Assembly (NCBI GenBank): GCA_015478665.1
Contig: JADMII010000011.1
Span: 13,889-77,888 of the forward strand
Source: Dehalococcoidia bacterium
Lineage (GTDB): Bacteria > Chloroflexota > Dehalococcoidia > DSTF01 > JACRBR01
DNA: 64,000 nucleotides
Reading direction: 5' to 3'
Shown here: positions 25,151-59,853 of the stretch, one piece after another
Layout of the letters: each line of letters starts with the position of its first letter
Numbering within the stretch: position 1 is the first letter of the stretch
The notes under the pieces: generated by a model
Told to the model about the DNA's origin: nothing
Databases searched by the model: none
What the model saw: the letters and a program-made list of their open reading frames with translations, nothing else
Translations under genes and position numbers: made by a program

Positions 25151-27307
25151 TCACCTGGTGCGTTCCTCCGCCGCGTCGATCAGCCCCAGCTTCTCCATCC
25201 GCATGCGGATCGAGCCCGGCTGCCGCTGGAGCTTCCGCGCGATCTGCTCCGGGCCGTCGCCCACACCCGCGTACCGTTGCACGAGCGTATCCTCTTCGTC
25301 GCTCCAGCGCTCGTACGCGCGCGCGTGCTCGCGGCGCACCTCCAGCTGAGACGCCGTGAACTTGACCGGGCGCCGGCCGTTCCGAGCGTCCATCGCCGCC
25401 AGCGTCGGCTCGACGGTTGCCGGCGGGCCGTCGTCCGACGTCTCCTCGTTCGCCGGGGCGTCGATCGGCGTTCGCGCGGCAGGCGCGGCTACCTCGGCGA
25501 GCACGGCATCGCCGTAGCGTTCGAGCTTCGCCGGCCCGACGCCGCCCACCGCGAGCAGCGCCTCCGGCGTCGTCGGCCGCGCGTCGGCGATGCCGCGCAG
25601 CGCCGCGTCGGTGAGCACGACGTACGCCGGCACGCCGTCCGCCGCCGCGCGTTGCATGCGCCACGCCTTCAGGCGCGCGAACAACGCCGCACCGTCGCCG
25701 TCGAGCCCGGCGGCGGGCCCGACGACGCCCGGCCGTGAGCCCGGCCGATGCCCTCCGCTCGCCGCTTCCGCCGGCAGCCGCAGCTGGCTCGGGCGCGCGC
25801 CGGAGATGACGTCGGCCGCACGGCGGGTGATCTGCAGCGTCGCCCGCTCGGTGCCGACGGCGAGCATGCCGGCGGCCACCAGCCGCCGCAGGAGATGCCG
25901 CAGCCACATCTCGCGGCGCTCGCGCAGCAGGCCGAAGCCGGCGCGGCGCTGCCAGTCGTACGCGCGCACCTGCCGGCTCTCCTCGCCCATCAGGTAGCTG
26001 ACGATGACGTTCGCGCCGACGGCGAAGGGCAGCGCGCGGACGGCGGCGAGCGCCGCGCGCACCGTCTCGGCCGACGCCGCCTCGTCTGGTTCTGGCGGCC
26101 GCTCGTCGGCCGCCGATGCGCGGCAATTGTCGCAGTGCCCGCAGCCGCCCAACTCCTCCGCCTCGTCCTCGAAGTAGCGCAGGATCGCGTCGTGGCGGCA
26201 CTCCGCCGTCTCGGCGTAGGCGATCATCGCCCGCAACAGCTCGCGGCGATGCAGCGCCTGCTCCGGCGCCGGCTCTCCGTCCGAGGCGATGAGCCGGAAA
26301 CGCCGCTGGATGTCCGTGTCCGAGACGAGCAGCACCCCGGCCGCCGGCATGCCGTCGCGACCGGCGCGGCCGACCTCCTGGTAGTACGCCTCGACCGACT
26401 GCGGCACGGCGTGGTGCATGACGAGGCGGATGTCCGGCCGGTCGATACCCATGCCGAATGCGTTCGTCGCCGCCACGACATCGAGCGCGCCGGCCTGGAA
26501 CCGCTGCTGCACGGCGGTGCGCTCTTCGCCGCTCATGCCGGCGTGATAGTGATCGGCGCGCCAGCCAGGCCCGCGCAGCGCCGCCGCTACGCTCTCGGCG
26601 TTCGAGCGCGTGGCGGTGTACACCAGCGCCGTGCCGCGTCCGCCGCGCGGCTTGCCGATGGCGCGACGGAGCTCCGTCGCGATCAGCTGCTCCTTCGCTC
26701 TGGCGCCCGCCGCCTCGACGACCGACAGCTCGAGGTTGTGGCGGGCGAACCCCCGCAGCACCTGCACGGCAGCCGGCATGTGCAGCCGCTCGACGATCTC
26801 GCGTCGAACCGCCGGCGTCGCCGTCGCCGTGCAGGCGATGAGCCGCGGCGGCCGCAACCGCTCGACGAGCGCGCCGAGCTGTAGGTAGTCGGGGCGGAAG
26901 TCGTGGCCCCAGTGGCTGATGCAGTGCGCCTCATCGACAGCCAGCAGCGAGATCGGCAGCCGCGCCAGCACCTCTTCGACGAAGCGCTCCGATGCCAGCC
27001 GCTCCGGCGCCACGTACAGCAGCTTGACGCCGCCGGCCAGCGTCAGCTCCGTCCGGCTGCGCACGTCGTGCGGCTCCAGGTTTGATGCCAGGTACGTCGC
27101 AGGGATGTTGCGCGCGTGGAGCGACGCCACCTGGTCCGCCATCAGCGCGACCAGCGGAGTCACCACCAGTGCCATGCCGTCGAGGTCGACGGCGGGCTGC
27201 TGGAAACACATGCTCTTGCCGCCGCCGGTCGGCGCCACGACCAGCACCTGTCCGGGCCCATGCTCCAGCGCGTCGATCGCCTCGCGCTGCCAGTCGTACA
27301 GTTCCAC
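25151..27307 (-). CDS. recQ: RecQ family DNA helicase with HRDC and an extra C-terminal domain
   Basis: PTGGGKS, DEAHCIS.WGHDFRP.Y, TATAT, AFGMGID, QE.GRAGRDG, Zn site CR...CGHCDNC and HRDC L..WR....VPAYVV. Confidence 0.93.
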   Translation of the reverse strand: MELYDWQREAIDALEHGPGQVLVVAPTGGGKSMCFQQPAVDLDGMALVVTPLVALMADQVASLHARNIPATYLASNLEPHDVRSRTELTLAGGVKLLYVAPERLASERFVEEVLARLPISLLAVDEAHCISHWGHDFRPDYLQLGALVERLRPPRLIACTATATPAVRREIVERLHMPAAVQVLRGFARHNLELSVVEAAGARAKEQLIATELRRAIGKPRGGRGTALVYTATRSNAESVAAALRGPGWRADHYHAGMSGEERTAVQQRFQAGALDVVAATNAFGMGIDRPDIRLVMHHAVPQSVEAYYQEVGRAGRDGMPAAGVLLVSDTDIQRRFRLIASDGEPAPEQALHRRELLRAMIAYAETAECRHDAILRYFEDEAEELGGCGHCDNCRASAADERPPEPDEAASAETVRAALAAVRALPFAVGANVIVSYLMGEESRQVRAYDWQRRAGFGLLRERREMWLRHLLRRLVAAGMLAVGTERATLQITRRAADVISGARPSQLRLPAEAASGGHRPGSRPGVVGPAAGLDGDGAALFARLKAWRMQRAAADGVPAYVVLTDAALRGIADARPTTPEALLAVGGVGPAKLERYGDAVLAEVAAPAARTPIDAPANEETSDDGPPATVEPTLAAMDARNGRRPVKFTASQLEVRREHARAYERWSDEEDTLVQRYAGVGDGPEQIARKLQRQPGSIRMRMEKLGLIDAAEERTR

Positions 27308-28177
27308 CTACACCTCGCCGCCGTTGGCCTCGACCGGCGTCCAGCGCCGCTTGCCGTCGGGCGTCTCGCTCAGGCGGCCGAGCCCGGGGTACGGGCAGTG
27401 CACGGCGACGACGAGCTCGCGCTCATCGATCGCCCGCCGCACGACGGCCTTCTTCGTCTCCATCGCCTGCAGCGGGAAGACGTCGAACGACGACACCCAC
27501 GCCGTCCGCTCCAGCTGCACCGAATGCTGCACCATGTCGCCGATGTAGATCGCCCGCTCGCCCGCCGATGCCAGCAGCACGCTGGCGTGGTCCGCCGTGT
27601 GCCCGGGCGTGTCGACGACGATCACCTCGTCCGTGATCTTCGTCTCCCCGTCGATCAGCTCGAGCTGCCCGGCCGCCTCGAGCGGCAGGATGTTTTCCGG
27701 CAGGTAGGTCGCCCGCGTGCGCTCGTTCGGATGCGTCGCCGCCTCCCACTCGCCGCGGCGGATCAGATAGCGCGCGCGACGGAACGTCGGCACGAAGCTG
27801 CCGGCGTCGTCGGCGCGCGTGTTCCAGCCGCAGTGGTCGGCGTGCAGGTGTGAGTTGACGACGACGTCGACGTCCTCGGGCCTCACGCCGACGGCGCGCA
27901 GGCCATCGAGCAGCGTCCCCTCGCTCGCCGGCGACGACTGCGCCCGGACGCGCTCCTTATCGCCCACGCCGGTCTCGATGAGGATCGTCTTCCCGGCGGA
28001 CCGGACGAGCAGCGAGTTCAGCCCGAGCGCCATCTGATAGCGCTCGTTGAGCGGGATCGCCAGCCGCTCCCACATGATGCGCGGCACGACGCCGAAGACG
28101 GCGCCGGCGTCCTGGTAGTACGTGCCATCGCTCAGCACCAACAGGTCGAGATTCCCCAGCCGGTGTCGTGCGGCCAT
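27308..28177 (-). CDS. MBL-fold metallo-hydrolase (YtnP/AHL-lactonase-like)
   Basis: D.GA.FGVVP, SHLHADHCG, TPGHT..H, GD and a C-terminal H; abuts recQ. Confidence 0.88.
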   Translation of the reverse strand: MAARHRLGNLDLLVLSDGTYYQDAGAVFGVVPRIMWERLAIPLNERYQMALGLNSLLVRSAGKTILIETGVGDKERVRAQSSPASEGTLLDGLRAVGVRPEDVDVVVNSHLHADHCGWNTRADDAGSFVPTFRRARYLIRRGEWEAATHPNERTRATYLPENILPLEAAGQLELIDGETKITDEVIVVDTPGHTADHASVLLASAGERAIYIGDMVQHSVQLERTAWVSSFDVFPLQAMETKKAVVRRAIDERELVVAVHCPYPGLGRLSETPDGKRRWTPVEANGGEV

Positions 28178-28298
28178 GTGTTGATCCTCGCCTCAGGGTC
28201 GACCGCGTGGCGTCGCTGCGCGTCGACGGCGCGGCGTTCCGGAGCGCGGCGCTCGGTCGCAGGGTTCGTCGACGCTGGCGCAACATCGTCAGCATTCT

Positions 28299-28344
28299 AG
28301 AACGTCTGTGCGAGTACGATAGGCCGATCGAGCGCCTGCGTCAA
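28299..28344 (-). promoter_or_regulatory. Promoter plus putative LexA box for the MBL-recQ operon
   Basis: Minus strand TTGACG-N17-TATCGT (28344-28316); AGAAC-gtct-GTGCG at 28299-28312. Confidence 0.5.
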
Positions 28345-28403
28345 CTGCTCCGGGCGCCATCCGCAGAGTGGGACTGGCGCGCCCGGCATCCGGTCGCCGC
28401 TGC

Positions 28404-29741
28404 CTACAGATGCGCAGCTGCGATGCTGATGCCGTACCCGACGAGCAGCAGCACGCCCACCATCGCGTGCAGCTGGACGTTCTTGCCCAGCGTTGCCATC
28501 AGCTCGTACGGGGCGCCGTACTGCTCCCGAATGCCGCGATAGATCTGGAACACCAGCGGCAGCGCCAGCAGCGCCAGCAGCGTCGGCAGCGGGATGACGC
28601 CGCTCACCGCGGAGACGGCGATCGCCGCGAACGCGGCGAGCGCCGCGACCAGGAAGGCCTTCGTCACGATGTCAGCGCTCCAGCGTACGGGGAGCGTCCG
28701 CTTGCCGACGAGCGCGTCGCTCCGCCGGTCGGGGATCTCGTTGAGGTAGAGGATGAGCGCGATCAGGATCGCCACCGGGATCGACGCGACGAACGGCTCG
28801 GCGGACCACTGCTTCGTCTGCACCAGGTACGCGCCGACCACCATGATCGGCCCGAATCCGAGCGCCGTCGTCACTTCGCCCAGCCCGCGATGCACGAGCT
28901 TGAGCGGCGGCGCCGTATAGAAGACGCTCAGCAGCACGCCGATGACGCCGACGATGAGCAGCGGCAGCGAGCCTCGGTATACGACGAGGAAGAGCCCGAT
29001 GGCGATGCCGACGGCGTATGCGCCGAGGCACAGCGCCCCCATCTGGCGCAGGGTCACGAGTCCGCGCTGGACGACGCGCGAGCCGCCGCTGAACTGCGTC
29101 GGGTTGACGTTCGCCGCATCGGCGCCGGAGAGCGTATCGAACACATCGTTCGCGACGTTCAGCCCGATATGGATGGCGGCGCCGCCGATCAGCGTCAGCA
29201 GCGCCAGCCACCAGTTGAAGTGGTCGTGCTTGGCGGCGACGGCGATGCCGAGCAGCACCGGCACGATCGTCGCCGTCAGGAACGGCAGGCGCGTCGCCAG
29301 CAGGAACGTCCAGAAGCGCGAGAGCCGCGGCTTCACCTGCCGTCCCTGCTCCGCCGACACCTGCGCCAGGTACTTCCGCGCCTGCTCGTTCGAGCGCTCG
29401 GAGTACTCGAAGAACGGCGTCTCCTTCTCGTCCCAGCCCCAGGCGCGCGCCGGCGCCAGGATGCGCGCGCCGCCGCGCGCCTGCAGCCGGCCCCACAGCT
29501 CGATGTAGCGTCGCTGGTCGTAGCCCGTCCCCGGCTGCGGCCGGATGTGGCTGACCGTGACGTTCACCTCGCTCTCCACGGGCAAGGCGATGCCGCTGGC
29601 CGCGAGCACGAGCTCGCCGCGCCCGGCGTCGACCTCGAACAGCGCCGGGGTCTGCAGCGGGTAGCCGTCGTCGTCGGTCCAACTCACGATCGCGTGGGGA
29701 TACGTCGCGAGCTTGTCGAAGAGCCTGCGGTCGATCTTCAT
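28404..29741 (-). CDS. MenA/UbiA-family prenyltransferase with an N-terminal PNPOx-like domain
   Basis: ATRLPFL, NVANDVFD...GAD, SGGSR, YTAPP.KL...GLGE and NEIPD...D...GKRTL, preceded by about 140 soluble residues starting AIVSWTDDDGYP. Confidence 0.85.
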   Translation of the reverse strand: MKIDRRLFDKLATYPHAIVSWTDDDGYPLQTPALFEVDAGRGELVLAASGIALPVESEVNVTVSHIRPQPGTGYDQRRYIELWGRLQARGGARILAPARAWGWDEKETPFFEYSERSNEQARKYLAQVSAEQGRQVKPRLSRFWTFLLATRLPFLTATIVPVLLGIAVAAKHDHFNWWLALLTLIGGAAIHIGLNVANDVFDTLSGADAANVNPTQFSGGSRVVQRGLVTLRQMGALCLGAYAVGIAIGLFLVVYRGSLPLLIVGVIGVLLSVFYTAPPLKLVHRGLGEVTTALGFGPIMVVGAYLVQTKQWSAEPFVASIPVAILIALILYLNEIPDRRSDALVGKRTLPVRWSADIVTKAFLVAALAAFAAIAVSAVSGVIPLPTLLALLALPLVFQIYRGIREQYGAPYELMATLGKNVQLHAMVGVLLLVGYGISIAAAHL

Positions 29742-30226
29742 CGCGCCGCCTCCGCCGCCGCGAGCGTCGCCGTCCGGGGCGGCTTCGAGGGGTCGCCGTC
29801 GTCCCACCAGTAGACGCGCCGCGGCGTCACTTCGATAATCGACCGCTCGAAGAACAGGGGCAGCGCGAACCGCTTGCCGAGGAATTGGTCGATCGCCGGC
29901 TCCTTCGCCCGCCAGAGCGGCAGCACCTGCTCCCACGTCTCGTGCGGGTCGTCCTCGACCACGCGCGCATCGCCCTGGATGCTGCAGCGCGCCGTCAGTC
30001 CACCGGTGGCGACCGGGTCGGTGATCGAGAGGCTGACGCGGCCGTCGCGCTTGATGTGCTCGAGCTTCCTCGAGAAGAGGATGCTCGAGGTCATGTACAC
30101 ACGCTCGCCGTCCCATAGCGGGATCAGCGGGTGGACCACCAGGCGACCGTCGGCGCCGATGACGGCCAGCTCGCACACCAACGCCCGCTGTAACAGCTCA
30201 TCGACCAGCTTCGGCATCTCACGCAT
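29738..30226 (-). CDS. PNPOx-like (split-barrel flavin/F420-binding) protein
   Basis: ELAVIGADG...HP, K...I.RD.RVSL, IQG.ARV and IEVTP.RV..W; ATGA overlap with the downstream prenyltransferase. Confidence 0.8.
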   Translation of the reverse strand: MREMPKLVDELLQRALVCELAVIGADGRLVVHPLIPLWDGERVYMTSSILFSRKLEHIKRDGRVSLSITDPVATGGLTARCSIQGDARVVEDDPHETWEQVLPLWRAKEPAIDQFLGKRFALPLFFERSIIEVTPRRVYWWDDGDPSKPPRTATLAAAEAAR

Positions 30227-30563
30227 CAGACTCGGCTCCCGTCCTCCGGCATCGGCCTGCTCCGTCGCGTTCCCGCGCGTGATTGGATGCGACGTGGCAT
30301 CCACCCGAAGCGTACCGCGTCCGCCGGATGATGCATGCCGCCGCTAATCAGCGCTCATGCACCGGCCAGATAACACATGCGGAGCAAGCGCGAGCGGGTG
30401 GGGGCACGCCGCGCCATCGCCCAGCCGGCGCCGTCGCGCTGCAGTCAGGCCGCCGGCGCCGCGCGCACGCGTCACCGCCGGTCGCTCGCCCGTCGATCTC
30501 GACATCGTGCGGACTCGCGTGTACGATAGGCGCCTGAACGAGAACAGAGACGGAGGCCCGGCC

Positions 30564-31403
30564 ATGGCCACTACCGCGTACCTCACCGATGCCGCGTCCA
30601 TCTCGACCGGCGCGACGCGACGGCTCGCGCTCGTCACCGGCGCCTCGTCCGGCATCGGGCGCGGCTTCGCAGAGCAGTTGGCGCGGACAGGATACGACGT
30701 CGTCGTCGTCGCCCGCCGCCGCGATGTGCTCGATACCCTCGCATCGGACCTGCAGTCCGCGCATGGCGCGCAGGTGGAGGTGCTCGAGGCCGATCTCGCG
30801 ACCGACGCCGGCGTGACGGCGGTCGAGGAGCGTCTCGCGCGCGGCGACATCGATCTTCTCATCAACAACGCCGGCTTCGGCACGCGCGGGGAGTTCGCCG
30901 AACTGCCGGTCGCTCGCGAGCTGCAGGAGATCGATCTCAATGTGCGCGCGCTCGTGCGGCTCTGCCATGCGGCGCTTCCCTCGATGTGCGCGCGAAGCGC
31001 CGGCGGCATCATCAACGTCGCCTCGACCGGCGGCTTTCAGCCGGTGCCGTTCATGGCGACCTACGCGGCGACGAAGGCGTTCGTCCTGCACTTCAGCGAG
31101 GCGTTACACGAAGAGGTGGCGCCGCACGGCGTGACGATCACGTGCCTCTGCCCCGGGCCGGTGAAGACCGCGTTCCAGGAGACGGCCGGCATCGATCGGT
31201 CGGCGATGCCGTCGATCGCCTACGTCTCGGTCGAGGGCGTCGTGAGCGCCGCGCTCGCCGCGCTGCAGCGCGGGCGCGCGATCGCGATCCCCGGCGCGCT
31301 CAACCGCGCGACGGCCCAGGGCGCGATGCTGATGCCGCGCGTCGTCACCCGCAAGATCGCCGGCTCGATGTTCCGGCACGCCGGCTCGAAGCGCCGGGGA
31401 TAG
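30564..31403 (+). CDS. SDR family oxidoreductase
   Basis: TGASSGIG, NNAG, YAATK and CPGP. Confidence 0.92.
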   Translation: MATTAYLTDAASISTGATRRLALVTGASSGIGRGFAEQLARTGYDVVVVARRRDVLDTLASDLQSAHGAQVEVLEADLATDAGVTAVEERLARGDIDLLINNAGFGTRGEFAELPVARELQEIDLNVRALVRLCHAALPSMCARSAGGIINVASTGGFQPVPFMATYAATKAFVLHFSEALHEEVAPHGVTITCLCPGPVKTAFQETAGIDRSAMPSIAYVSVEGVVSAALAALQRGRAIAIPGALNRATAQGAMLMPRVVTRKIAGSMFRHAGSKRRG

Positions 31404-31648: not shown

Positions 31649-34600
31649 TCAGCCGAAGTTGTGAGACGTCGGCGCGCGCAGGCGCTCGGCTGCTCTGCGG
31701 GCTTGCGGTACGGGCAGCGCCTCGAAGCGCTCCGCCAGCAGGTTGACGGTGCCTTCCTTCCGCTGCAGCGTCCCCGCGACGATCACGAACGGTTCGCCGC
31801 GCACGAGCGCCCGCTGCCGCTCGTGCAGCCACGGCGGCACGATGATGTTGAGCATCCCGAACTCATCCTCCATCAGCAGGAAGACGAAGCCCTTCGCCGT
31901 TCCCGGCTGCTGGCGGCAGACCACCATCCCCGGCACGCGCACCCGCTCGCCGTCCGGCATGCGCAGCAGGTGCCGCAGCGACGGCATCGCTTCGCCGATC
32001 GCCGGCCGCATCAGCGCCATCGGGTGGTGCCCCGGCGACAACGAGAGCAGGTTGTAGTCCGCGGCCATCTGCTCCCACGTCGTCATGTCTTCGAGCCGCA
32101 CGCTGTCCTGCGCGATGGGCAGCGGCAGCGTCAGCTGCACGTGTGGCGGCCGGTAGAGCAGGCCCAGCTGCCACAGCATCTCTCTCCGGTTCAGCCCGAA
32201 CGCATCGAAGGCGCCGGTCTGGATCAGGTTCTCGATAGCTTCCTCGGACACGGCGTGTGGTGCGCCATGCGGCAGCGCCGGAGCACGCTTGTGATGTTGG
32301 ATGGCATCGGCGGCCACCGCTCCGGCCAGCCGCCGCCAGCCGCCAGCCTCCGTCCGGGCGTGCGCGATCGGCGTGATGCAGATCCGCCGCACGAAGTCCG
32401 CCAGCGAGGCGAACGGCCCCCCGCGCGCGCGCTCGTCGACGATCGCCTGGGCCGGGCCGGCGCCGATGCCGCGGACGTAGCCGAAGCCCACGCGCACGGC
32501 ATCGTGCTCGACGCTGCAGGTCGCGGCGCCGGCGTTGATATCCGGCGGCAGCACGGTCACGCCGTGGCGCCTGGCGTCGTGCACGAGCACGTGCGGCGGG
32601 TAGAAGCCCATCGGCTGGGCGTTCAGCAGCGAGCAGAGGAACTCCACCGGATAGTAGCGGCGCAGCCACGCGGACTGGAACGCGAGGAAGGCGAAGGCCG
32701 CCGAGTGGCTCTTCGGGAAGCCGAACTCGGCGAAGGCGACGATCTTCTCGAACACCGTCTTCGCCACCTCGTCGCTGACGCCGCGGGCCCGTGCGCCATC
32801 GCGGAAGAGCGCGTAGAACCGCGCCATGTTGTCGCGCGAGCGCTTGCGGCTCATCGCCCGCCGCAGCGCTTCCGCCTGCCCCTCGGTGAAGCCGGCGACG
32901 GCGACGGCCGCCTGCAGCACCTGCTCCTGGTACAGGATCACCCCGAGCGTCTCGCTCAACACCGGCTCCAGGCTCGGATGGTCGTACGGCGGACGGAAGC
33001 CGGGGTCGGCGAGCTGCGCCTGGCGGTGCCGCACGTACGGGTTGACGGCGCCGCCGACGATCGGCCCCGGCCGGATGATCGCCACCTGCACCGTCAGGTC
33101 TTCGATCGACCGCGGCCGCGTGCGTGGCAGCATCTGCATTTGCGCCCGGCTCTCGATCTGGAAGACGCCGACCGTATCCGCTGCACAGATCAGGTCGTAC
33201 ACCTCCGGGTCGCCGAAGTCGATCCGGCTCAGGTCTTCGATGCGGCCGTGCTGCTCCGCGATGAGGTCCGCGCACTCTTCGACGAGCGAGAGCATGCCGA
33301 GCGCAAGGAAGTCGATCTTGATGAAGCGCGCATCATCGACAGAATCCTTGTCCCACTGGCAGATGTAGCGGCCGGCCATCGCCGCCTGCTCCACCGGCAC
33401 CAGCTCGACGATCGGCTTGGTCGAGATCACCATGCCGCCGACGTGCTGGCTGAGGTGGCGCGGGAAGCCGGAGATCTGCTGCGCGAGTGCGATCAGGTCA
33501 CGCCAGATCGGCGCGTCGATCTTGCCGGCGTACTCGTCGTACAGGGACATCTCGTGGGCGATGTCGCCGGCCGATCCCCAGCCGGCGCGCTTCGCCAGCC
33601 GGTCGAGCTCGCTCTCGGCGATGCCCAGCGCCTTGCCGACGTCGCGGATCGCGCTGCGCAGCTTGTACGTCGGGAAGCTCGCGACGAGCGCCGCATGCTC
33701 GCGGCCGAAGTGCTCGTACACTCGCAGGATCAGCTGCTCGCGGATGTCGCGCGGGAAGTCGAGATCGATGTCCGGGACGGAGGCGATCTCGTCGTTCAGG
33801 AAGCGGCCGAGGTAGAGGTTGTGCTTGATCGGGTCGACGTGTGACAGGCCGATGAGGTAGCAGAGGATCGACCCGACGGACGAGCCGCGGCCGCGACCCG
33901 GCGGCAGGCCGGAGCGGCTGCGCGCGGTGTGGCCGCCGCGGACCTCTGCCGCCACCTCGCGGCTCAGCTCGAGGAGCTCGCGGTAGATCAGGAAGAAGCC
34001 CGAGAGGCCGTGCTTGCGCACCAGCCGCAACTCCTCCTGCAGCCGCCGCTTGACGCGCTCCGGGATGCGCCCCGCCACGCTGCCGTAGCGTTCGCGCGCC
34101 GCCTGCCGGCACACCGTCTCCAGGTACGCATCGGCGTCGGAGCCGTCCGGCGGCGTATAGTCGGGGAAGCGATACTCAAGGTCCCGCGTGAGGTCGAAGG
34201 TGCAGCGTTCGGCGATGCGCGCGCCTTCGTCGAGCGCCTCCGGCCAGGCGGCGAAGAGCTCGGCCATCTCTTCCGGCGACTTCAGGTAGTACTCCGAGTT
34301 CTCACGCCGCTCGCGATGCGACGCCTCGAGCGTCGTCCGATGCCGGATCGCCACCATCACGTCCTGCAGGCGGTGGCGTGCGCGCTCGTGGTAATGCACG
34401 TCATTCGTCGCGACGTAGCGCAGCCCGTGCGCCTGCGCCAGCGCGACGAGACGCCGGCAGCGCTCCGTGTCGCCGTGCACCAGGTTCTGCTGCAGCTCGA
34501 CGTAGAAGTTCTCCCGACCGAACAGCGCGATATAGCGCTCGACGGCAGCTTCCGCCGCCGCAGGCTCGCCCGCCGCGACGAGCGCCGGCACGAGGCCGCG

Positions 34601-34993
34601 CTTGCAGCCGGAGAGCGCGATGAGGCCGCGCGTGTGCTGCGCCAGCGCCGCGAGCGAGAGGCGTGGCTCCTTGCGGGCGCTCGTCAGGTGCGCGGTCGAG
34701 AGGAGACGGCAAAGGTTGCCGTACCCCTCGCTGTCCCTTGCCAGCAGAGTCAGGTGGTGGCCGTCCTCGAGCGTCACCTCGGCGCCCGTGATCGCGCGGA
34801 TGCCGAAGGCGCGGGCGGCCTGCGCGAACTCCATGGAACCGTAGAGCCCGTCGTGGTCGGTGAGCGCCAGCGTCTCATAGCCCAGGTCGCGCGCGCGCAG
34901 GATCAACTCGTCGGGGCTGGAGGCGCCATCGAGCAGCGACCAGCAGGAGTGGAGGTGGAGCTCGGCGCGGTAGCGGTGGGCCGGGGCTGCCAT
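31649..34993 (-). CDS. dnaE2: Error-prone DNA polymerase (DnaE2/ImuC)
   Basis: PHP H.HS..S.LDG, GRGSS, PDIDLD, RHLSQHVGG, GFPKSH and the C-terminal SHNFG (S[RH].F[HG]) DnaE2 signature. Confidence 0.93.
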   Translation of the reverse strand: MAAPAHRYRAELHLHSCWSLLDGASSPDELILRARDLGYETLALTDHDGLYGSMEFAQAARAFGIRAITGAEVTLEDGHHLTLLARDSEGYGNLCRLLSTAHLTSARKEPRLSLAALAQHTRGLIALSGCKRGLVPALVAAGEPAAAEAAVERYIALFGRENFYVELQQNLVHGDTERCRRLVALAQAHGLRYVATNDVHYHERARHRLQDVMVAIRHRTTLEASHRERRENSEYYLKSPEEMAELFAAWPEALDEGARIAERCTFDLTRDLEYRFPDYTPPDGSDADAYLETVCRQAARERYGSVAGRIPERVKRRLQEELRLVRKHGLSGFFLIYRELLELSREVAAEVRGGHTARSRSGLPPGRGRGSSVGSILCYLIGLSHVDPIKHNLYLGRFLNDEIASVPDIDLDFPRDIREQLILRVYEHFGREHAALVASFPTYKLRSAIRDVGKALGIAESELDRLAKRAGWGSAGDIAHEMSLYDEYAGKIDAPIWRDLIALAQQISGFPRHLSQHVGGMVISTKPIVELVPVEQAAMAGRYICQWDKDSVDDARFIKIDFLALGMLSLVEECADLIAEQHGRIEDLSRIDFGDPEVYDLICAADTVGVFQIESRAQMQMLPRTRPRSIEDLTVQVAIIRPGPIVGGAVNPYVRHRQAQLADPGFRPPYDHPSLEPVLSETLGVILYQEQVLQAAVAVAGFTEGQAEALRRAMSRKRSRDNMARFYALFRDGARARGVSDEVAKTVFEKIVAFAEFGFPKSHSAAFAFLAFQSAWLRRYYPVEFLCSLLNAQPMGFYPPHVLVHDARRHGVTVLPPDINAGAATCSVEHDAVRVGFGYVRGIGAGPAQAIVDERARGGPFASLADFVRRICITPIAHARTEAGGWRRLAGAVAADAIQHHKRAPALPHGAPHAVSEEAIENLIQTGAFDAFGLNRREMLWQLGLLYRPPHVQLTLPLPIAQDSVRLEDMTTWEQMAADYNLLSLSPGHHPMALMRPAIGEAMPSLRHLLRMPDGERVRVPGMVVCRQQPGTAKGFVFLLMEDEFGMLNIIVPPWLHERQRALVRGEPFVIVAGTLQRKEGTVNLLAERFEALPVPQARRAAERLRAPTSHNFG

Positions 34994-35047
34994 ATCAGGT
35001 ATATTTTCCCGCGAATGTATCACCGGGAGGCGGATGATGGCCCGGCG

Positions 35048-59019: not shown

Positions 59020-59853
59020 ATGTCGGAAGACGTCCTGATCGACAAGCGAGACGATGGCATCGCGATGATCACGCTGAACCGCCCGGATAGCCTGAACGCG
59101 ATGGGCGGCAAGCTGATGCCGATGCTCGCGCAGCACCTCGCCGACTGCGCCGCCGACCGCGCCGTGCGCTGCGTCGTGCTGACCGGCGCGGGACGCGCGT
59201 TCTGCGCCGGCGGCGACGTGAAGGGCATGGCCGCCGGCCGCGACGCTGTCGCCGGCGATGCCGACGGGTCGCAGCATTCACCGGCGAGCGCGCTCGCAGC
59301 GGGCGTCGAGGGCCTGCGCCGCTCGCAGCGCGACACGAGCTACATGCTGCACACGATGGGCAAGCCGACCGTGGCGATGGTGAACGGGCACGCCGTCGGC
59401 GCCGGGCTCAGCCTGGCGCTGTCGTGCGACCTGCGCATCGCCTCCGACCGCGCGAAGTTCGGCACGGCATTCCGCAACGTCGGCTTCAGCGGCGACTTCG
59501 GCGGCTCGTACTTCCTCCAGCGCCTCGTCGGCATGGGGAAGGCGCGCGAGCTGTACATGACGGGCGAGATCCTGGAGGCGGCCGAGGCGGCGCGCATCGG
59601 CATGGTGAACCGCGTCGTCGAGCACGAGCAACTGGAGGCGGAGACGCTGAAGCTGGCGACGCACCTGGCCAGCGGGCCGACGCTCGCCTACGCGCGGATG
59701 AAGGAGAACCTGAACCGGGCGGAGACGTGCGACCTGCCGACGCTGCTCGACCAGGAAGCGCTGAACATGCGGCTCTCCGGCATGACGAACGACCATCGTG
59801 AGGCCGCGCGCGCATTCGTCGAGAAGCGCCAGCCGACGTTCACCGGCAGCTGA
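59020..59853 (+). CDS. Enoyl-CoA hydratase/isomerase
   Basis: LNRP..LNA, AFCAGGD, NG.AVGAG and AF.EKR.P.F. Confidence 0.92.
   Translation: MSEDVLIDKRDDGIAMITLNRPDSLNAMGGKLMPMLAQHLADCAADRAVRCVVLTGAGRAFCAGGDVKGMAAGRDAVAGDADGSQHSPASALAAGVEGLRRSQRDTSYMLHTMGKPTVAMVNGHAVGAGLSLALSCDLRIASDRAKFGTAFRNVGFSGDFGGSYFLQRLVGMGKARELYMTGEILEAAEAARIGMVNRVVEHEQLEAETLKLATHLASGPTLAYARMKENLNRAETCDLPTLLDQEALNMRLSGMTNDHREAARAFVEKRQPTFTGS

Follow-up and report, generated by a model that had tools for sequence, protein, structure and literature searches.

MenA-type prenyltransferases are, to our knowledge, usually regarded as self-sufficient membrane enzymes. They belong to the UbiA superfamily, which is characterized by two Asp-rich motifs (NDxxD and a second Asp-rich loop), and they need their acceptor as a quinol. 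UBIAD1, the animal menaquinone-4 (MK-4) synthase, has no need of a de novo head-group pathway and acts on menadione, which requires prior reduction. Split-barrel enzymes of the Ddn type are reported to be F420H2-dependent quinone reductases that convert quinone to quinol (PMC3567243). Here we analyze a gene pair, hereafter the cassette, in a 64,000-nucleotide stretch of DNA from a Dehalococcoidia bacterium (contig JADMII010000011.1; the whole stretch is called the window). The pair encodes a free split-barrel protein (P0002) translationally coupled to a fusion protein (P0001), in which a second, predicted barrel precedes a MenA-like prenyltransferase. We propose, at a probability of roughly 45%, that the two barrels form a flavin module which supplies the prenyltransferase with its acceptor in reduced form, as a quinol, and that the two proteins act as one complex of late respiratory-quinone synthesis. 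The cassette comprises the following features.

29738..30226, minus strand: P0002, free split-barrel protein of the PNPOx family, predicted partner of the fused barrel
29738..29741, minus strand: ATGA stop/start overlap of P0002 and P0001, read directly
29418..29741, minus strand: P0001 residues 1-108, new split-barrel domain according to the structure model, with no sequence-family match
29322..29417, minus strand: P0001 residues 109-140, helical linker in the domain model
28404..29321, minus strand: P0001 residues 141-445 and stop codon, MenA/UBIAD1-like UbiA domain (PF01040 and AlphaFold2 (AF2) model)
29118..29150, minus strand: first Asp-rich motif, N198-D-V-F-D202...D208, invariant in 30/30 sequences
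28695..28742, minus strand: second Asp-rich motif, N334-E-I-P-D338...D342...G-K-R-T349, invariant in 30/30 sequences

An initial annotation, made from the window alone, had described two minus-strand genes joined by an ATGA overlap, the first encoding a 162-residue PNPOx-like protein and the second a MenA-type UbiA enzyme with both Asp-rich motifs, and our analysis agrees on each count. Both open reading frames (ORFs) were confirmed (P0002, 29738-30226, 162 residues; P0001, 28404-29741, 445 residues), and the ATGA is shared by the P0002 stop TGA (29738-29740) and the P0001 start ATG (29739-29741). The ATG at 30226 is the P0002 start that agrees with the homologues, whose first residues align with it; an alternative GTG start at 30304 would give 188 residues. 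P0002 scores over the gathering cut-off of the Pfam family PNPOx_N (PF01243; 35.1 vs 28.1 bits, residues 5-141) and under the cut-off of TIGR03618, the F420-dependent PPOX class, which is its nearest curated model (48.2 vs 79.05 bits). With a family profile, its nearest solved sequence is 3f7e, the F420 reductase MSMEG_3380 (E = 5.8e-6), with which residues 4-72 align, the S-x-K region included, and its atlas neighbours are PNPOx clusters (score 0.96). An alignment of 30 P0002 sequences has 39 invariant columns, and with a mean column identity of 70-73% the P0002 and P0001 families are both strongly conserved.

The C-terminal part of P0001 resembles MenA of Escherichia coli and Mycobacterium tuberculosis (TIGR00751 and PRK06080 models), which gives its best family matches, in its UbiA fold, in both Asp-rich motifs and, in some cassette lineages, in having MenG and a polyprenyl synthase as operon partners. 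It scores well over the Pfam UbiA cut-off (PF01040; 109.5 vs 34.2 bits, residues 159-415). Unlike MenA, however, P0001 is longer by about 140 residues at its N-terminus and has an obligate partner gene, and all 10 MenA-named NCBIfam models score it below their curated cut-offs (the best, NF004751, gives 163.9 bits under a cut-off of 264; TIGR02235 gives 128.7 under 225 and TIGR00751 gives 85.1 under 102.15). It also differs in its place in a tree of 33 prenyltransferase domains, where the cassette forms its own clade (100/100) with an actinomycete and a Chloroflexota branch, and in belonging to a genome in which no men or mqn head-group genes were found. Together with PNPOx-type fusions described below and three unfused proteins, the cassette makes up a 16-row clade (84/90), all nine MenAs encoded next to MenB fall in a separate 13-row clade (95/95), and luciferase-type fusions form a long separate branch. 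The tree was midpoint-rooted, with the outgroups on long branches, and the G016 sequence was excluded because it contained an internal stop. The solved chain closest to the domain is UBIAD1 (8djk, 301 residues; E = 5.2e-8 over residues 145-409), which has neither a fused nor a dedicated barrel module.

The N-terminal domain of P0001 is covered by no Pfam family, and residues 1-140 gave no Pfam or NCBIfam match at E<=1. Folded alone (AF2, 36-row alignment), these residues reached a predicted local distance difference test score (pLDDT) of 94. A wide structural search (VIA) matched them best to NimA (1w3o; Z 11.0, root-mean-square deviation (rmsd) 3.2 Å, 101 aligned residues) and also to the FAD protein MSMEG_5243 (6eci; Z 10.8, rmsd 2.8 Å, 96 aligned). 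There were 38 chains at Z>=8, and those listed were nearly all split-barrel flavin, F420 or heme proteins, matched over residues 1-108. Foldseek against the PDB likewise returned split barrels in all its top rows, with a best E of 1.3e-3 and none at E<=0.001; the fold was settled by the wide search. Judged by these models, residues 1-108 are a split barrel that is invisible to sequence methods, so that the split-barrel likeness previously noted for the first ~140 residues has structural support (Z 11.0 over residues 1-108) and none from sequence. The full-length AlphaFold model (pLDDT 81.1, predicted template modelling score (pTM) 0.67) shows a helix and six strands for residues 1-104, followed by a linker whose placement is poor and by a membrane domain made only of helices; the linker has helices at 110-117 and 119-132 in the domain model, and pLDDT drops below 50 at residues 110-118 in the full-length model.

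Invariant positions of the domain in a 30-sequence alignment include S64-H-I-R67, G73-Y-D75 and R77-R-Y79. An invariant WGWDE..PFFEYxERS stretch lies immediately before and within the linker, the invariant residues around which are R99, G102-W-D-E105, P109, F110, E112, E115, R116 and Y124. (For orientation, AIVSWTDDDGYP corresponds to residues 17-28 and YIELWG to residues 79-84.) When 1.84 billion representatives were searched by phmmer, the 140 residues matched 142 proteins at E<=0.001, only of the domain's own kind; among 10 longer matches that were scanned, eight had a UbiA match, five of them over the cut-off. One of these eight, of 594 residues (P0255), holds an N-domain-like part, PNPOx_N (35.5 bits) and UbiA in a single chain. 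The domain's atlas neighbours, at a score of 0.88 and thus under the 0.9 line, are hypothetical proteins of about 135 residues labelled Bathyarchaeota, which we treat only as a lead. A profile comparison of the two families found no relation (probability 0.5%), and a recent duplication as the origin of the two barrels was accordingly rejected.

Complex prediction supports the pairing of the free and the fused barrel as a heterodimer, as had been suggested from the window. For P0002 with P0001 residues 1-140, modelled from alignments built for this analysis, the interface score ipSAE (interaction prediction score from aligned errors) was 0.87, 0.87 and 0.85, against 0.35 for the best control, the mark used having been reached by 58 of 80 solved complexes vs 2 of 110 mismatched pairs. 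The runs had 77% or more of their contacts in common, and partner pLDDT was at least 80. The predicted interface draws on the invariant S64-H-I-R67, G73-Y and R77/Y79 of the N-terminal domain and on F51, S52, R80, Q84, G85, D93 and H95 of P0002, and in the model these residues sit where split-barrel dimers bind cofactors. Ddn/Fqr and other split-barrel flavin or deazaflavin oxidoreductases of mycobacteria (MSMEG_3380, 3f7e; MSMEG_5243, 6eci; Rv1155, 1w9a) match the N-terminal domain in fold (Z 8.6-10.8), but they are free homodimers uncoupled from any prenyltransferase, whereas here a heterodimer is predicted in which one subunit is fused to a membrane enzyme. As a further difference, several cassette carriers lack markers of F420 synthesis.

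The pair is conserved well beyond the source genome. Relatives were sought in one genome per species, and 462 of 480 candidate stretches encode a relative; all locus counts below refer to the best 80 of these 462 stretches. The 80 loci come from Dehalococcoidia, Limnocylindria, other Chloroflexota and Gaiellales/Thermoleophilia-type Actinomycetota. A word-index search listed 120 proteins of 440-475 residues that are 62-96% identical over at least 95% of the query, and those among the 120 that carry a name are called prenyltransferase or 1,4-dihydroxy-2-naphthoate (DHNA) octaprenyltransferase. In all 80 loci the gene immediately upstream, in the same orientation, encodes a homologue of P0002 (56-77% identical), so that the pairing first noted in one genome holds throughout this set. 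Stop of the barrel gene and start of the fusion, classified by hand in each locus, overlap as [A/G/T]TGA in 62 and as TGATG in 11; three are one continuous ORF and four are of other kinds. The three continuous ORFs (L052, L078 and L086; 617-625 residues) occur in metagenome-assembled genomes (MAGs) from long reads, and were left unused as proof of a triple fusion on account of possible indel or frameshift errors in such assemblies. Among the 142 phmmer representatives, 11 unite P0002-like and N-domain-like parts within one predicted protein. Full-text literature searches, whose scope was main texts without supplements, returned no published description of this architecture, and among the titles listed for Gaiella none dealt with quinone pathways; the architecture is new to the literature searched, and databases annotate the proteins as plain prenyltransferases.

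Clustering of all ORFs in the 80 loci gave no third universal gene. After the pair, no neighbour cluster was present in more than 26 loci, and the commonest ones consist of genes for late quinone synthesis or complex III. In the actinomycete group, genes for a Rieske protein, cytochrome b, cytochrome b-C/c and a polyprenyl synthetase lie upstream on the same strand in 22-24 of the 80 loci. A targeted search found the polyprenyl synthase in 25 loci and a MenG/UbiE-type methyltransferase in 23, upstream sequence of more than 2.6 kb being present in 62. The gene order in those loci is MenG, polyprenyl synthase, barrel and fusion, with the Rieske and cytochrome b genes ahead, and in two carriers, G122 and G123, the MenG inside the cassette operon scores over its cut-off. 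These neighbours place the pair in late isoprenoid-quinone synthesis beside the quinol-oxidizing complex, and the link of the pair to quinone synthesis is thus supported.

Redox domains are also joined to MenA-like enzymes in other forms. In the class sample, the cassette profile gave MenA-like matches of 216-251 bits (plain MenA gives about 150) in open frames of about 511-605 residues. Three PNPOx-type::UbiA proteins of 511-514 residues were observed (L093:4661-6199 in G117, L094:3666-5201 in G026 and L095:3468-5012 in G017), two of which have PNPOx_N or Pyridox_ox_2 near threshold (27.6 vs 28.1 and 28.1 vs 27 bits). Like the cassette, they carry a redox domain before the MenA-like domain, share the PFSGGSRxIQ motif and are near relatives in the tree; unlike it, they have a recognizable PNPOx domain and, in L093, no partner gene by tblastn. 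No P0002-like partner was detected by tblastn for the PNPOx-type fusions, and the one in L093 is directly followed by a UbiE-type methyltransferase (163.9 bits). A further type is a 667-residue protein (L096:3687-5690 in G059; also in G078, G038 and G003) with Bac_luciferase (205.8 bits) ahead of a UbiA/MenA-like domain (108.1 bits); it differs from the cassette in having a triosephosphate isomerase (TIM)-barrel oxidoreductase and a distant prenyltransferase domain, and its genus also holds the cassette and a plain MenA beside MenB. That three different redox folds occur ahead of MenA-like enzymes speaks for a generic redox function in aid of the prenyltransferase.

We also compared the cassette with the rest of the quinone machinery of its carriers. 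The source genome (G000; 2.67 Mb, 98.9% complete) has genes for cytochrome b, a Rieske protein and heme O synthase, and encodes four UbiA proteins: heme O synthase, one of the decaprenyl-phosphate phosphoribosyltransferase type, a 300-residue protein without assignment and the fusion. The fusion is the only MenA-like protein among them, and a separate canonical menA, whose possible presence had been raised at the outset, is absent. In a model search of the genome, neither MenB (best 162.7 bits vs a cut-off of 342.7) nor MenD (59 vs 244.2) was found; there was no match to PF02621 (MqnA/D), the only matches to the MqnC model were CofH and CofG, and MenG was not found (best 56.3 vs 158.35). The earlier statement that the window holds no other men genes stands, the only MenB-model match there being the one of 162.7 bits. 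This match is a crotonase-family gene at 59026-59841 (plus strand), the best of 15 MenB-model matches in the genome, and is not MenB. Among 121 sampled Dehalococcoidia, the fused form occurs in six (the source genome, G066, G084, G001, G003 and G038, those of G003 and G038 with apparent frameshifts); five of the six have neither PF02621 nor MenB, and G038 has MenB beside a separate plain MenA.

The comparison within Actinomycetota was sharper, although few independent carrier lineages were tested overall and kin are not independent. In the order of carrier G122, PF02621 was found in 59 of 61 sampled genomes, usually in two copies (58 of 60 when G147, an unpublished genome among the 59, is left out), and G122 is both one of the two genomes lacking it and the sole cassette carrier among the 61. 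Two further carriers, G123 and G124, gave no match to PF02621 and no MenB, and in G122 and G124 there was no match to the CofH model, which detects MqnC/E in futalosine-pathway genomes. That the fusion should always accompany a missing head-group pathway was a candidate rule that we consider weakened: 51 of 86 non-fusion Dehalococcoidia genomes lack the markers as well, and both G038 and G121 have MenB. Loss of head-group genes with retention of late steps has a parallel in Porphyromonas pasteri, which is reported to lack five menaquinone genes, to keep the two that lead from DHNA to menaquinone, and to grow on DHNA or MK-4 (PMC9704088). Like that species, the source genome keeps the late step or steps and has no head-group genes, but P. 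pasteri uses a plain MenA, and uptake by the organisms studied here is putative.

As to the cofactor, CofG and CofH are adjacent in the source genome and both over cut-off (G000:C1:67318-72656, L009/L010), so this genome can make the deazaflavin F0; a 291-residue ORF beside them gave no NCBIfam match. CofH is over cut-off in 34 of the 121 class genomes and in five of the six carriers, which cover three lineages only, the exception being G001. Outside the class, it is over cut-off in one of five carriers, with no model match in three and a sub-cut-off partial match in G121. F420 was accordingly rejected as an obligate cofactor or substrate. It is possible in some hosts and not required, and a flavin is the safer guess, since CofH is missing in most carriers outside the class.

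We propose that P0002 and P0001 form one membrane enzyme complex of late respiratory-quinone synthesis, in which the C-terminal 305 residues of P0001 would act as a MenA/UBIAD1-type polyprenyltransferase, and the fused barrel and the translationally coupled P0002 would form a heterodimeric barrel module on the cytoplasmic face. A single complete cofactor site would be expected in such a dimer, with the free subunit supplying most of it. This module would bind a flavin (flavin mononucleotide (FMN), or F420 where the host makes it) and serve as a two-electron quinone reductase, so that a naphthoquinone-type acceptor could be held or delivered as quinol directly at the prenyltransferase. The acceptor would be taken up in oxidized form, by salvage as for UBIAD1 with menadione, or be made by an as yet unknown route, given that carrier genomes lack the known head-group pathways. 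We infer that the acceptor is reduced before it is prenylated, a view strengthened by the two further unrelated redox domains fused to MenA-like proteins.

Several observations weigh against this proposal. On the structural side, the model leaves uncertain how the barrel is placed relative to the membrane domain (pTM 0.67, with low confidence in the linker), no cofactor motif was recognizable in the N-terminal domain by Pfam, NCBIfam or profile comparison, and the latter gave no relation between the N-domain/fusion family and the P0002 family (probability 0.5%). The result of the complex model may partly reflect likeness to known split-barrel homodimers, many of which have been solved, and may thus in part be memory. 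On the genomic side, F420 cannot be the general cofactor, and the end product in the source genome may differ from that of the actinomycete operons because the source genome lacks MenG. The genomes G038 and G121 hold the cassette together with MenB over its cut-off. Finally, 86 other Dehalococcoidia have a MenA-like match with no fused barrel, and only 35 of them have MenB or PF02621; the absence of Men/Mqn markers in Dehalococcoidia is therefore unspecific to the fusion.

Other explanations have to be weighed against the delivery of a reduced acceptor. The cassette might instead end an undiscovered de novo pathway, in which the barrel heterodimer forms or aromatizes the head group from a common metabolite, as an oxidase or dehydratase resembling PhzG/PNPOx, and passes it on for prenylation, giving a third route or a new quinone. 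Carriers with a full respiratory chain and neither known head-group route would fit such a pathway, as would the separate clade of the cassette domains (100/100) apart from the nine MenB-adjacent MenAs, the sub-threshold scores with all NCBIfam MenA models, and the invariant Arg/His/Tyr cluster (SHIR, GYD, RRY), whose sequence suggests binding of an anionic substrate. We nevertheless consider this unlikely: the loci hold no third conserved gene, their commonest neighbours (at most 26 of 80) being late quinone and complex III genes, a bicyclic head group is hardly to be expected from one small barrel dimer, and three unrelated redox folds on the same type of enzyme are better explained by generic reduction. 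Reduction might also act on the product, with the barrel module converting the prenylated quinone to its quinol for the methyltransferase MenG, much as NDC1/NdbB is the dedicated NAD(P)H dehydrogenase for product reduction in phylloquinone synthesis. MenG does lie in the same operon in 23 of 80 loci, and the UbiE-type methyltransferase follows the PNPOx-type fusion directly in L093, but the source genome and G125 have an intact cassette with no MenG over cut-off, and the conserved unit is the pair (80/80) rather than MenG, which makes product reduction quite improbable.

The barrels might not be catalytic at all and serve as a scaffold, as a carrier that binds substrate or heme, or as a regulator of the prenyltransferase; the split-barrel GluTR-binding protein, for example, regulates tetrapyrrole synthesis. 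Non-enzymatic heme or protein binders do occur among the structural matches of the N-terminal domain (4n7r, Z 9.3; 5bnc, Z 9.0; the PilZ-type YcgR-N 5y6h, Z 8.9), a domain that shows no recognizable cofactor motif. Yet P0002 scores high enough for PNPOx_N and can be aligned, the S-x-K region included, with the F420 reductase MSMEG_3380, and relatives have a luciferase-like oxidoreductase, a fold known for catalysis, at the same position, so a purely non-catalytic role seems a poor prospect. The initial annotation had further offered a bound flavin, deazaflavin or heme as the prenyl acceptor itself, which would yield a new lipid-anchored cofactor. Consistent with a deazaflavin (F0) acceptor, the cassette of G038 comes after cofG and cofH in the same orientation, five of six class carriers have CofH over cut-off, and the source genome has both enzymes. 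Those five, however, stand for three lineages only, G001 lacks CofH, three of the five carriers outside the class have no CofH match and G121 a partial one, the neighbours conserved in the operons belong to quinone metabolism (MenG, polyprenyl synthase and complex III), and the catalytic domain has its closest relatives in MenA and UBIAD1. We regard this option as very improbable.

A broader interpretation, which we put forward as a speculation with the odds against it, is that the cassette represents a third, undescribed way to a respiratory quinone, which displaces the futalosine pathway in an abundant, uncultured lineage of soil actinomycetes and is shared with Limnocylindria and soil Dehalococcoidia. 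Either the heterodimer would create or activate a head group other than DHNA, giving a new quinone class, or these lineages would be obligate head-group scavengers; in the latter case, head-group dependence would help to explain their resistance to cultivation. The delivery of reduced acceptor that we favour would itself amount to a dedicated putative redox module built onto a MenA-type enzyme and kept across two phyla; nature would here have coupled reduction directly to prenylation, a problem that animals solve separately for UBIAD1. The carriers (Gaiellales-like actinomycetes, Limnocylindria and soil Dehalococcoidia) are common in soil and almost all uncultured, and several have a respiratory chain and no known route to a quinone head group. 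Knowing the prenylated acceptor would tell which quinone they respire with, and could reveal a new pathway or a head-group dependence of use for isolation media.

Additional observations concern the surroundings of the cassette. In 13 Limnocylindria-type loci (e.g. L084:3422-4156 and L037:3746-5203), the fusion is closely followed by a 244-residue ORF that matches no Pfam family, and a beta-eliminating lyase of the tyrosine phenol-lyase/tryptophanase family (257 bits) follows about 1.8 kb downstream; neither had a tblastn match in the source genome. In the locus of G038 (L097, G038:C190:1-9000), genes for a crotonase, ThiC, CofG and CofH, a 205-residue ORF without family, the barrel, the fusion (with an apparent frameshift) and FtsY lie on the same strand. 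In G001 (L099), a 324-residue ORF without family precedes the barrel gene, and the gene immediately after the fusion, in the same orientation, encodes a cytochrome P450 (L099:3552-4877). A promoter and terminator scan of window positions 27900-30600 gave nothing decisive; its one promoter-like site, at 28344-28316 of the minus strand, separates the fusion from the gene that comes next. The window neighbours were discarded as parts of the system: the metallo-beta-lactamase (MBL) hydrolase occurs in 0/80 loci, a short-chain dehydrogenase/reductase (SDR) in 2/80, and RecQ, the DnaE2-like protein, HisI and HisF in 0/80. The genes that flank the pair, named from their translations and all on the minus strand, are those for a 1124-residue DnaE-type polymerase alpha subunit (31649-35023), a 289-residue metallo-beta-lactamase-fold protein (27308-28177) and a 718-residue RecQ-type helicase (25151-27307).

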